DNA from: a virus
Taxonomy: Duplodnaviria; Caudoviricetes
Length of the DNA stretch: 64,000 nucleotides
Virus record (IMG/VR): IMGVR_UViG_2706795367_000001
Location: 1 to 64,000 of that record
Reading direction: 5' to 3' (one strand)
In this document: in pieces, positions 2,604 through 59,699 of the stretch
Position numbering within the stretch: the first letter of the stretch is position 1
Layout: each line of letters begins with the position of its first letter
Notes under the pieces: model-generated
Seen by the model: the letters and a program-made list of their open reading frames with translations, nothing else
Told to the model about the DNA's origin: nothing
The model's database searches: none
Made by a program: the position numbers and the translations under genes

Positions 2604-2837
2604 GTGACCGAGAACTTCCTCGAGGACGGCCTCAACGTCGCGTGGGACCTCGGAATCAAGGACGGCGTGAACGCGTGCATCGCGGGGGCCGAGGCCCTGC
2701 TGGCGGTCGTTGAGAAGAACCTCGCGGCCTGTAACCGGCTCTCGCGGCGAGGTGCAGAATTCCGCGCCCAGGTCGAGATTCTGCGGGGCGTCATCGACGG
2801 ATACAACCAGGTCCTCGAAAACCTGGGTGACAAGTGA
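2604..2837 (+). CDS. hypothetical protein
   Basis: GTG start after GGGAG; GTGA overlap downstream. Confidence 0.6.
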   Translation: MTENFLEDGLNVAWDLGIKDGVNACIAGAEALLAVVEKNLAACNRLSRRGAEFRAQVEILRGVIDGYNQVLENLGDK

Positions 2838-2977
2838 CCGGGAACTTCCTCGACGGCCTCATCGAGGCGCTAAAGACCGATGCAGACCTCCGCGCCTGGG
2901 CGGGGACCATCCTGTGCGCCCGCGCCGCAGAGCTCCCGGACGATCGGCTCGACCTGAAGGAGTGGCTTGGTGAGTGA
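2834..2977 (+). CDS. small hypothetical protein (47 aa)
   Basis: Manual translation VTGNFLDGLIEALKTDADLRAWAG...; 5' end nearly duplicates that of the 2604 gene. Confidence 0.55.
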   Translation: MTGNFLDGLIEALKTDADLRAWAGTILCARAAELPDDRLDLKEWLGE

Positions 2978-3176
2978 CCTCAGTGCCGTCGAGTGCCGCG
3001 CCTGCGGCGAGATCATGGGCTACGTCAATAGCGACCAGGTGGTGCGCACGGAATTCGCATGCCGATGCGGCGAGTACGGCTGCAAATCGCACTATGCACC
3101 GAAGGGTTGGACAAAAGCCACCAGGGTCGCCGCATACCAGCGACTGCTTGAGATTTTTCCGCTCGGCGGGAGGTAA
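2970..3176 (+). CDS. small Cys-rich protein
   Basis: CRAC...CRC; AAGGAG upstream. Confidence 0.6.
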   Translation: MSDLSAVECRACGEIMGYVNSDQVVRTEFACRCGEYGCKSHYAPKGWTKATRVAAYQRLLEIFPLGGR

Positions 3177-3180
3177 ATCA

Positions 3181-3570
3181 ATGGCCCTAACCGAGGGCCT
3201 CGGCGCCCGCGGTGCCGAGGTCTATCAAGCTCTCACTGAAAACCGGAAGATGAACGCCGCCCAGAAGGTGATGGCGTTGAATGCCGCGCGCCTCGCCGAC
3301 ACCCTGGACCGCATCGAATCGGAACTCGCTTTTGCGAGCACCACGGTGATAAACAGCCAGGGCACCGAGACCATCAACCCTCTCATTTCTGAGGCGCGGA
3401 TGCTTACAGGAGCGCTCTGCACAATTCTCGCCAAGATGGGCATTGCCGAATTGCCGGAGCAAAGCTCCGGAGAGAAGTCTGTCTTTGACCAGCTTGCTGC
3501 TAGACGAGCCGAGCGGCTCGCCCCTAATGGGGGTTCAGGAGCCGCGGATATGGCTAAGCCCGGAAGCTAA
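3181..3570 (+). CDS. terS: terminase small subunit
   Basis: GGGAGG RBS; helical protein with INPLISEAR motif, overlapping terL. Confidence 0.8.
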   Translation: MALTEGLGARGAEVYQALTENRKMNAAQKVMALNAARLADTLDRIESELAFASTTVINSQGTETINPLISEARMLTGALCTILAKMGIAELPEQSSGEKSVFDQLAARRAERLAPNGGSGAADMAKPGS

Positions 3571-52040: not shown

Positions 52041-52274
52041 GCATACTATCTGCATACGGCTGGGATTTGCATACCGTCTCGATCTTGAAAAAGTGCCTCT
52101 GACCAGTGCCCTCGGTGAGATTCGAACTCACACTGTACGGGTTTTGAATTTTTTGATCTGGCGTTTTCTACCTGTGGGATTGCAGATCCTCAACGCTATT
52201 TCTGCAGGCAGGAGTGCGTACGAGCGGTGATTGTTGGCGGCAGCGTGGTCCCATGGTGCATACGATTTGCATAC
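52041..52274. other. attP: attP site: tRNA-Leu(CAA) 3'-half core flanked by arm-type repeats
   Basis: Core 52106-52149 reverse-complements to TTCAAAA...GTGAGTTCGAATCTCACCGAGGGCAC; (T)GCATAC at 52041, 52051, 52068, 52257, 52268. Confidence 0.9.
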
Positions 52275-56868: not shown

Positions 56869-57242
56869 GGACCTGCACGATTCCGGGGTGCGAGAAGAAG
56901 CACCACGCTCGCGGCTTCTGCGTCGTGCACTACCAGCGGTGGAGGCGGCGCTCCGACGAGCCCCGCGGCAACTACCGCCGTAACCATCGGCCGGATTGCA
57001 AGCTGGAATGGTGCAACGGGCGGTTCTACGCCAAGGATCTCTGCCGGTTCCATCACCAGCGTCTCCTCCGTGGCAAGGCCATGGACGACCCGCGCGGCAA
57101 CGTCGGGATCTTCGATTGGGCGGCGTGCGGGACGCCGGCGCAATACAGGAAGCACTTCCGGCACGGCATCCCCTTGTGCGACGCATGCCGGAAAGCTGAG
57201 AGTCGACGTCAGAAGGACCGCCGCGAGAAGGCAAAGCGATGA
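56865..57242 (+). CDS. multi Zn-finger protein
   Basis: Two C-x4-C...C-x2-H repeats plus CGT...H...C..C. Confidence 0.8.
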   Translation: MRTCTIPGCEKKHHARGFCVVHYQRWRRRSDEPRGNYRRNHRPDCKLEWCNGRFYAKDLCRFHHQRLLRGKAMDDPRGNVGIFDWAACGTPAQYRKHFRHGIPLCDACRKAESRRQKDRREKAKR

Positions 57243-57553
57243 AAGATTCTTCCGAACCTTTACGGGGATCTGATCGTCCCAATGCTAAAGTTGACCTTGA
57301 GCAAATCCTCGGAAACTGGAGGCCAGCGTGTGGATTGCGGGAGGACATGCCAGCGCTTCCGGTGTGCGGGAATCCCGCCACGCACGTACTCAACTTTCAT
57401 GGCGGACATTTTGTTCATCTGACTTGCATCCCCTGCTACTACCTCTACATGGAGGCAATCCGTCAGGGGATTGAAACATTCCCCAAGGTGGAATGCACCG
57501 CCTGCGGAGAAGGCGTAGATGCACTCGTTCATCTCAAGCTAACTCCGCTCTAA
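57239..57553 (+). CDS. Cys-rich hypothetical protein
   Basis: C...C...CIPC...CTAC; ATGA overlap. Confidence 0.65.
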   Translation: MKDSSEPLRGSDRPNAKVDLEQILGNWRPACGLREDMPALPVCGNPATHVLNFHGGHFVHLTCIPCYYLYMEAIRQGIETFPKVECTACGEGVDALVHLKLTPL

Positions 57554-57818
57554 GAAACTTCCCCGGCCAAGAGCCGGCGGGCAAAACTTAAAAGCTTCAA
57601 CCGGCGGAATGCCAGCTCCCTCCCAAGTAGACGGGGGTGACGATTCCATCAGCCTTTAGGTGCCGTACGAAGCGTTATATGTGTGACGGGTTAAGTGCTA
57701 CAGGGGCCTGAAAAGGCCGCCCGCGGGGACATAGAAACCTCGCCGTTAGCCGCAAGGCGCGTAGACCCACTTCGGTGGAGGATTAAGCTTACCCATTTTC
57801 TTTGCAGAGAAATCTGCA
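57554..57818 (+). ncRNA. candidate structured ncRNA
   Basis: Intergenic; GAAA, GCAA, UUCG and GAAA tetraloop hairpins plus nested stems. Confidence 0.6.
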
Positions 57819-57879
57819 GCGCACGGCCGGAATGGTTCGGCACGAATTCGTCAAGGTTCAAATCCTTGCGTGCGCACCA
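57819..57879 (+). ncRNA. 61-nt tRNA-like element lacking a true anticodon arm
   Basis: 7-bp acceptor GCGCACG/CGTGCGC + A-CCA; D-like arm GCCG-GAATGGTT-CGGC; T arm CAAGG-TTCAAAT-CCTTG; only ACGAATTCGT between D and T arms. Confidence 0.8.
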
Positions 57880-57880
57880 G

Positions 57881-57939
57881 TCGCGGGGAGTCGAGCCGGC
57901 TTGTTCTAGCCGAGTGTCGGTTCCTCCCCGCGATTTTTT
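57881..57939 (+). terminator. intrinsic terminator
   Basis: TCGCGGGGAG/CTCCCCGCGA stem followed by T6. Confidence 0.8.
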
Positions 57940-57965
57940 GTACCCAAAATCAGGGAGGTTCGCCC

Positions 57966-58265
57966 ATGCTCGGACGTTTCACTGAAGATCAGCAAGTTCT
58001 GCTCGCCTGCTACTGGGCGCTCTCCGACGCCCACCCGCCTCACAAGGGCGAGCTGCGAAAGATGTTCCGCAGCAAGGTGGATACCTCAACCGCGGAGCAC
58101 GCGGTGATCTCCGCCCGCCGCGCCGAGGACTTCCACATCGGCATCGCCGGGGCCCTCACCGAACTGTCCAAGGCCACCCAGAAATACCCCCGCTACGCCT
58201 TCGACCGTTTCCGTCGGGGGACGGGCGTTCCCAACCATCGCAAGGTGCGGGTCCGTGACAACTGA
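57966..58265 (+). CDS. hypothetical protein
   Basis: GGGAGG RBS. Confidence 0.7.
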   Translation: MLGRFTEDQQVLLACYWALSDAHPPHKGELRKMFRSKVDTSTAEHAVISARRAEDFHIGIAGALTELSKATQKYPRYAFDRFRRGTGVPNHRKVRVRDN

Positions 58266-58780: not shown

Positions 58781-58980
58781 ACTACGAATACCAACTGGTG
58801 ATCGCCAAGAACGCCGCAAGGGAAACTGAGGCGTTGATCCGCAACGCCCTCGAATACCTGGCAGAGGCCCGCTCCACGGTGATCGATCACCTCTCCGCCC
58901 CCAATGACATCTACGCCCGGCTGACCATTGTTCAGGACCTCGGCCTGGTGGAAGACAATCTCCGAAAGGCTTTGAAATGA
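58777..58980 (+). CDS. hypothetical protein
   Basis: ATGA overlaps. Confidence 0.65.
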   Translation: MNYEYQLVIAKNAARETEALIRNALEYLAEARSTVIDHLSAPNDIYARLTIVQDLGLVEDNLRKALK

Positions 58981-59699
58981 CCATTGATCTCGACCGCATC
59001 ACCCACCCCCTTCGCCTCGCCAAAGGATCACATCAGCCCGGCTCCGGCAAAGGCTGCGCCATGAACGTGATCTCATACATCAACGGCGACACGGTGATCA
59101 CGGATTACCCGAAGTGCTCGGCCCGCCCGCTCGCCCGCCTGGTGCAGCAGTGCAATGACGAGTTGGCCGACTCGGACGGGTTCTTGGCGCCGGAAAATAG
59201 CGTGCTGGTTTTGGATCTGGGTTGGCAGACCGTCGGAACTGCTGATGTTCCCGAGTCGGTGATGTTGCGGTGGTTGCGCGACATTCTGGTCGATCCGGTG
59301 CATGGGGTTGTGCGTCACGCTCGACCGGATGGGGTTGCGGCCATTAGCCGTGTGGCCGAGTTGTGCGCGCGGCAGGCATCAGGCGTGGAGGTTTCCGGGG
59401 CGGAGTGGCGTTCCGCCCAAGTCGCCGCCAACGCCGCCTACGCCGCCGCCAACGCCACCAACGCCGCCAACGCCGCCTACGCCGCCGCCAACGCCGCCTA
59501 CGCCGCCGGTGTCGCCGCCGCCAACGCCGCCTACGCCGCCGGTGTCGCCGCCGCCGACGCCGCCGACGCCCGAGTCGAGTTCACCCGTTGGGCCATCGCG
59601 CGATGGCGCGCCCTAGCGGGACTCGACACTCCGCGCGATATCGTCACGCAAGAGGTTGACGACGCACTCGCCCGAATCAATGCAGGTATGCCGAAATGA
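58977..59699 (+). CDS. protein with Ala-rich internal repeat tract
   Basis: LRLAKGSH...GCAMN N-terminus; AANAAYAA repeats. Confidence 0.85.
   Translation: MTIDLDRITHPLRLAKGSHQPGSGKGCAMNVISYINGDTVITDYPKCSARPLARLVQQCNDELADSDGFLAPENSVLVLDLGWQTVGTADVPESVMLRWLRDILVDPVHGVVRHARPDGVAAISRVAELCARQASGVEVSGAEWRSAQVAANAAYAAANATNAANAAYAAANAAYAAGVAAANAAYAAGVAAADAADARVEFTRWAIARWRALAGLDTPRDIVTQEVDDALARINAGMPK
59421..59570 (+). repeat. in-frame tandem repeat GCCGCCAACGCCGCCTACGCCGCC x4 with variants
   Basis: Directly visible; encodes AANAAYAA. Confidence 0.9.

Follow-up and report, generated by a model that had tools for sequence, protein, structure and literature searches.

The anticodon-less tRNA mimic described here is the 3′ module of a larger, unannotated RNA cassette that belongs to an uncatalogued family of phage RNAs. 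The DNA analyzed, referred to below as the window, covers the initial 64 kb of a virus record of 110,764 bp, and the region that carries the mimic is 99% identical to Mycobacterium phage Omega of cluster J. The mimic belongs to the rightward early operon, where it falls between gp109 and gp111, and the elements of the cassette follow one another in the order predicted extended -10 promoter, variable 5′ domain, conserved core, abutting stem, mimic, bulged hairpin and gp111. Comparison with homologs leads us to favor, with moderate confidence, the reading that the mimic tags the 3′ end of a phage noncoding RNA for processing by RNase P and works in the manner of mascRNA.

Structure and conservation of the tRNA mimic

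The mimic is encoded on the plus strand in 61 nt (57819-57879). Its 7-bp acceptor stem (57819-57825/57869-57875) is joined without a linker to a D-like stem of 5-6 bp, whose loop carries GG on its 3′ side. In place of the anticodon region there is a stub hairpin of 10 nt, and after it come a T stem of 5 bp with a canonical T-loop, A73 and an encoded CCA whose last nucleotide is 57879. An anticodon-less, CCA-ending element of this length had been proposed in an earlier sequence-only reading, and the element is real: sequence and predicted fold (-26.4 kcal/mol, MFE frequency 0.53, z -3.1) give the same parse. The combination of a T arm and a 7-bp acceptor occurs once in the real window and in none of 60 simulated 64-kb windows scanned on both strands, and across the whole genome the T-arm and acceptor scan returned the mimic and tRNA-Gly only. 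The mimic is present in a single copy, away from the tRNA genes of this genome at 91.8-93.1 kb. The earlier reading had anticipated a weak match or none with standard tools; ARAGORN reports nothing at the mimic when run on the window, and Rfam gives no match at the gathering score, the best weak match being mascRNA-menRNA at 25.5 bits against a cut-off of 42.5.

BLAST finds a conserved block (57602-57878) in about 40 cluster J records, with approximately 82% identity in a more distant group; the block terminates at the mimic and is mostly without annotation in the cluster J records. WXIN has retained both core and mimic despite many substitutions. The downstream protein gp111 (phrog_6612) led to the cluster X phages Gaia and Nebkiss, a gp111 profile search yielded a dozen metagenomic and prophage loci, and pattern scans added L014, L015, L052, L053 and L055. 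In bacterial genomes, scanning returned either no match or matches at chance level. Wherever the locus includes enough upstream DNA, a gap of 450-700 nt precedes the gp111 homolog and holds the same parts in the same order.

The mimic itself was compared in 17 parsed modules, 12 of them distinct, from clusters J and X and from metagenomes. All seven acceptor pairs and four to five T pairs are kept in every module, in an acceptor/T helix of 11-12 bp. G1-C72, the two loop-proximal G-C pairs of the T stem and C74 are invariant, and the T-loop and the GG of the D-loop are kept. The remaining acceptor and T pairs occur in two to four forms each, with acceptor pairs 2-7 all variable. Residue 73 is always a purine (A in 13 of 17 modules, G in four), and CCA is encoded in three of the 17. 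The acceptor and T columns pair in 100% of cases compared with 77% ± 2% in column shuffles (0 of 5000), a result that is supporting rather than decisive, since the parser itself demanded pairing and kinship among the homologs was uncontrolled. The acceptor, T and D-like arms have been retained through covariation, and most homologs preserve the D arm and elbow. A class I tRNA needs about 22 nt between the D and T stems; in the 17 modules this stretch measures 2-21 nt, any loop in it has 3-5 nt, and by eye it contains no 5-bp stem with a 7-nt loop. An anticodon arm is absent from every parsed module, and the Rfam tRNA model has no match at the homologous loci. The mimic is thus neither the product of a recent deletion nor an unconserved sequence, two alternatives raised alongside the original proposal, because its homologs also lack the anticodon arm and their acceptor and T stems are conserved through covariation.

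At four loci the mimic is replaced by a simpler helix and the upstream core remains. In L015 and L038 the position of the mimic is taken by a minihelix of 11 bp with a loop of 8 nt, and in L043 and L049 by a hairpin of approximately 20 bp; all of these helices start with G and are followed by a purine. At L039 and L055, T-arm minihelices flank the structured RNA on both sides, the 5′ one directly behind the upstream ORF. The first nucleotide of the mimic sits 0-5 nt from the last stem of the upstream RNA in most homologs.

The structured RNA and its surroundings

An extended -10 motif (TGnTAnnnT, 57283-57291, plus strand) is the predicted promoter of the cassette, with a predicted start near 57298. 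This motif occurs seven times on the plus strand of the 110.8-kb genome, and 12 of 16 homologs have the strict -10 motif no more than 450 nt upstream of the core; the homologs are related, so that the counts are not independent. Between the promoter and the RNA lies a short ORF (57347-57553, plus strand; phrog_6825) that corresponds to the C-terminal 68 aa of the annotated Omega gp109. The start of the annotated gp109 (57239-57553, 104 aa) overlaps the predicted promoter; the true start is probably 57347, behind a strong Shine-Dalgarno site (GGAGG), and this is the start used in the Hannaconda annotation. The short gp109 ORF is missing from many homologs.

The RNA opens with a variable 5′ structured domain (57603-57665, plus strand), defined by the beginning of the conserved block at 57602, by folding and by alignment. 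It is kept within cluster J, and distant homologs have other folds instead. The conserved core (57683-57794, plus strand) is, in a 15-sequence alignment, a multi-way junction of four hairpins and a closing stem with invariant junction motifs, and 9 of its 20 predicted consensus pairs show double-sided changes. The 5′ motif of the core could pair over a long range with sequence before the third hairpin; L042 and L046 keep this motif although they lack the proposed partner. The last stem of the RNA (57803-57818, plus strand) abuts the mimic without a spacer. It is a plain hairpin here and in many homologs forms the closing stem of a full J module, a repeated three-way-junction unit of which each RNA contains zero to two copies. 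The J module is collapsed to this closing stem in the window, two tandem J modules are present in the RNAs of L042, L046 and L036, and module number and inserts vary like cassettes. Because the J module replaces the interior of the core in L042 and L046, the core appears to be an expanded form of it; the covariance-model link between the two is weak (10.8 bits, E 0.85). Among the relaxed J-module matches, L061 and L062 share one score, L061 falls within a coding frame and L063 lacks significance.

The Omega annotation places gp110 across the RNA (57695-57985 in the window; 2696-2911 in L002). It is probably not a gene, because an indel relative to Omega alters the length of the ORF and most cluster J records annotate nothing there. 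Locus L055 is an unrelated prophage (IMGVR_UViG_2927234461_000003) in which integrase, repressor, cro and excisionase genes come first. A noncoding stretch of approximately 450 nt (2790-3260) then contains a J module between two T-arm elements and is followed by an ORF that matches phrog_8036 only and that presumably resembles the N-termini of antirepressors; L055 has no match among annotated phages. In the prophage at L052 (3465-4718), an ORF that by eye is DNA methyltransferase-like lies just downstream of the cassette.

Right after the mimic begins a bulged hairpin with a U-tract (57880-57939, plus strand), composed of an 11-13-bp base stem, a pyrimidine bulge and a conserved 6-bp upper helix; the hairpin spans 57880-57934 and six T occupy 57934-57939. 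The bulged structure is conserved among the homologs, with covariation in its upper helix (L035, L039 and L048). At least five T within 9 nt after the hairpin are present at only 5 of 17 loci, and at the others a Shine-Dalgarno sequence follows within 0-13 nt. The original description of this element as a strong terminator fits the present lineage, with its hairpin and six T, and does not extend to the family. A simple terminator scan missed the hairpin because the loop exceeds the limit of the scan. L034 carries a 3′ hairpin (532-590) almost identical to that of the window in a cassette that is otherwise divergent, and the comparison suggests exchange of modules between phages. In Hannaconda (L003 1938-2218) an insertion of approximately 283 bp, which we take to be a deleted IS200/IS605 element with a TnpB N-terminal remnant, separates the 3′ hairpin from its U-tract and amounts to a natural test of the terminator. 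The upper helix is similar to group II intron domain V, an identity that we rejected: it has covaried into different sequences, and Dove-type phages have lost it by deletion. Group I introns, twister and other ribozymes were rejected by eye, and Rfam has no match to them.

The small gp111-like protein (57966-58265, plus strand; 99 aa, phrog_6612) recurs: nearly all of the loci examined have a gp111 homolog downstream of the cassette. The protein ends in a conserved basic, Arg/Lys-rich motif, which by analogy suggests that it binds RNA. Its structure model is of low confidence (pTM 0.33), and a fold search with this model gave no match. Farther downstream, an ORF of 240 aa (58977-59699) contains an alanine-rich, low-complexity repeat tract and is missing at this position in the Omega annotation.

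Proposed processing by RNase P and alternative readings

The anatomy and gene order of the cassette, its conservation and covariation and the missing anticodon arm are observed; from them we infer a course of transcription, RNase P cleavage and product release in which gp111 may take part. A dedicated promoter would transcribe the short ORF, the structured RNA, the mimic, the bulged hairpin and gp111. The mimic would fold as the upper half of a tRNA, with the acceptor stacked on the T stem and the GG of the D-loop docked on the T-loop, and host RNase P would cut directly before G57819, the predicted plus-strand cleavage site at the 5′ G of the mimic. The cut would leave the upstream RNA of approximately 220-240 nt with a defined 3′ end protected by a stem. 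Through 3′ trimming and CCA repair the host would release the mimic of approximately 61 nt as a by-product, possibly as stable as mascRNA released from MALAT1, and the downstream hairpin would end the precursor in this lineage or cap the remaining gp111 message. The upstream junction RNA would likely be the functional product, and the basic tail of gp111 might bind it.

The features that are fixed among homologs (G1-C72, the acceptor/T helix, the T-loop, the D-loop GG and R73-C74) are RNase P determinants. The bacterial enzyme recognizes the D/T loops and the 3′ RCCA and still accepts heavily truncated substrates (PMC4919922), the C4 RNA of P1/P7 is a non-tRNA phage substrate matured by RNase P (cited in PMC4919922), and Mycobacterium smegmatis cleaves and CCA-tails the YrlA tRNA mimic, which has a 7-bp acceptor, in vivo (PMC4201824). 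Judged from the alignment, aminoacylation identity is not conserved: residue 73 is A or G, the acceptor pairs vary and CCA is mostly unencoded. The minihelix of L015/L038 and the long hairpin of L043/L049 resemble RNase P model substrates and pre-4.5S RNA, and the exchange for simpler helices, together with T-arm elements at both ends of the RNA, would fit punctuation. We read the mimic as a cutting tag because the RNase P features are fixed, the identity features drift, the helices are exchanged and both ends of the RNA are used. The sequence of the upstream RNA is present and conserved, and the first G of the mimic abuts its last stem. The sequence-only reading had offered two options, and the comparative data are best fitted by the first, in which an RNase P tag would set the 3′ terminus of the upstream RNA; the second, a decoy or synthetase target, is weakened. 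A counterpoint to a pure tag is that the D-like arm is kept in most homologs though a minihelix would suffice for bacterial RNase P, and an extra role for the released mimic may account for this.

It is possible, but unlikely, that the released mimic is itself the functional molecule, as a charged or uncharged decoy for acceptor-end toxins, defense effectors, a synthetase (LeuRS) or EF-Tu. LeuRS is the synthetase most likely to charge an anticodon-less RNA, and this copy of the mimic has A73, C2-G71 and an encoded CCA. The retention of the D arm and elbow in most homologs would also fit a decoy, as would the RNA-repair enzymes linked to anti-tRNA defense that cluster J phages encode (PMC3706429). 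However, G73 acts as an antideterminant for bacterial LeuRS (PMC9976931) and is found in four of the 17 modules, the mimic has no U8-A9 linker, and its acceptor pairs are variable. The minihelix or long hairpin that replaces the mimic at four loci where the upstream core stays also argues against a decoy, and the single-copy mimic is tied to the upstream RNA rather than to the tRNA genes at 91.8-93.1 kb. RNase P cleavage is expected of a decoy and of a tag alike, and the two are compatible. Less probable, in our estimation, is a mimic that remains an uncut domain of an RNA of approximately 350-450 nt and, with its elbow shape, acts as a module for protein binding or nuclease blocking, like that of most YrlA RNAs, which stay uncut (PMC4201824). 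The mimic stacks directly on the upstream stem in the predicted fold, with no single-stranded leader, and the conservation of the downstream bulged hairpin resembles that of a structural domain; yet the invariant G+1 and R73-C74 are best explained by enzymes that act at acceptor ends, and the domains of the cassette are independent, because L045 lacks the downstream hairpin and several loci lack the J module.

There is also a slim chance that the cassette acts in cis as a leader of gp111 and the early genes beyond it, in the form of an attenuator, antitermination element or processing switch, much as C4 and CI gate the antirepressor operons of P1 and P4. The cassette has its own predicted promoter, its 3′ hairpin lies 0-24 nt before the gp111 Shine-Dalgarno sequence, and all gp111-family loci examined with enough upstream DNA carry it; the L055 module stands in the first lytic operon, behind the repressor, cro and excisionase genes, and the tail of gp111 is rich in Arg and Lys. 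Against a leader, the genome yielded no antisense target and no alternative pairing, its 11-mer matches being scattered and at chance level; neither the C4 nor the C4-a1b1 model of Rfam has a match, and L039 has one extra ORF between the cassette and gp111. We give next to no credence to the mimic as a decayed tRNA gene or attachment-site remnant. Its tRNA-like ancestry is evident and the Gaia and L015 versions are reduced, but no homolog carries an anticodon arm and double-sided changes keep the stems across phage clusters, in agreement with the earlier view that this is not a decaying pseudo-tRNA. The attP core (52099-52142, minus strand), which contains the 3′ half of a tRNA-Leu as described for cluster J, is unrelated in sequence to the mimic, and an attP remnant was rejected.

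A broader version of the RNase P tag is put forward here tentatively. The tRNA-shaped tags could act as mitochondrial-style punctuation that excises a new kind of modular RNA assembled from interchangeable three-way-junction units; with gp111 this RNA could form a previously undescribed RNP for early lytic control or anti-defense, and the mini-tRNA may double as an acceptor-end decoy. If the processing tag is correct, an RNA gene without annotation is present in the well-studied and culturable phage Omega and in about 40 cluster J and X records, and a phage RNA is matured like vertebrate MALAT1, via an anticodon-less tRNA mimic. The natural variants, which span the full D and T mimic, the minihelix and the long hairpin, would then reveal the requirements of host RNase P. 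Neither ARAGORN nor Rfam picks up the cassette, which in Omega is masked by the doubtful ORF gp110. The roles of the junction RNA and gp111 are directly testable because phage, host and genetics exist.

Comparison with known systems

The mimic shares with canonical tRNA (RF00005) the 7-bp acceptor, the T arm with its TψC loop, the discriminator and the GG of the D-loop, and differs from it in having no 5-bp anticodon stem and 7-nt loop. RNA C/D of T4 and RNA1/2 of T5 are stable, non-decoding, tRNA-shaped phage RNAs that are encoded in tRNA clusters and have a large insert in place of the anticodon arm; in the mimic the arm is deleted instead and a structured RNA lies 5′ of it. The earlier view that the element does not look like a tmRNA, based on the missing G3-U70, is borne out. 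Pair 3 is G-C here and G-U in only 2 of the 12 distinct modules, the module is contiguous whereas a tmRNA encloses the tag frame between the halves of its tRNA domain, and ARAGORN -m finds no tmRNA in the genome.

C4 of P1/P7 and CI of P4 are small structured RNAs cut by RNase P from an early transcript upstream of small ORFs, as proposed for the cassette. No complementary target of at least 11 nt, as expected of C4/CI-type antisense action, was found near the operon, and C4 RNA is not known to have a canonical T-loop/D-loop tRNA top half. The raiA motif RNA (RF03072) is, like the cassette, an ornate RNA, of approximately 200 nt, from Actinomycetota and Bacillota, and a few short sequence blocks of the cassette look to us similar to it. 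Homology with raiA was rejected: there is no covariance-model match at E≤10, and the conserved PK1-P6 linker of raiA, UUAGA(C/A)GUAA (PMC12968392), is absent. A raiA pattern scan of viral contigs returned chance matches only. GOLLD and ROOL are likewise ornate and abundant phage RNAs, linked to tRNAs and without an assigned function, and GOLLD has a variable 5′ region and a conserved 3′ region (PMC12286853). They are larger, many GOLLD RNAs exceeding 800 nt, and lie near true tRNA islands, and their Rfam models gave no match in separate runs at E≤10, E≤5 or E≤2. Rfam thus has no family for the cassette among tRNA, tmRNA, Y RNA, raiA and GOLLD. A search of the literature outside the supplements of large candidate-RNA surveys (e.g., PMC10690425) found no published description of the RNA, and the searched passages of the cluster J genome paper do not mention it (PMC3706429).

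Also comparable as RNase P substrates are the YrlA Y RNAs of M. smegmatis and mycobacteriophages, which have an anticodon-less D/T elbow and are cut by RNase P and CCA-tailed in this host (PMC4201824). YrlA is circularly permuted, with T before D and an acceptor closed by a loop (PMC4201824), whereas the mimic runs acceptor-D-T-acceptor-NCCA. YrlA also adjoins the Ro60 gene, and the present genome has no TROVE gene (PF05731 absent).

The mascRNA and menRNA of MALAT1 and NEAT1 (RF01684) are processed by RNase P and the CCA enzyme, and the mimic would work most like mascRNA on MALAT1. It resembles them as a tRNA-like module of approximately 60 nt in which the anticodon region is reduced and which terminates a longer RNA at the 3′ side, and the Rfam model scores of 25.5, 20.7 and 30.8 bits, the last for L034, are all below the 42.5-bit cut-off. 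The vertebrate RNAs are nuclear and have a U-A triple helix, in contrast to the phage cassette, which has an upstream multi-hairpin junction RNA and lies in a phage early operon. The relation to mascRNA is one of analogy, not homology. The principle of processing by a tRNA mimic is already known; what is new is the cassette and its junction modules.
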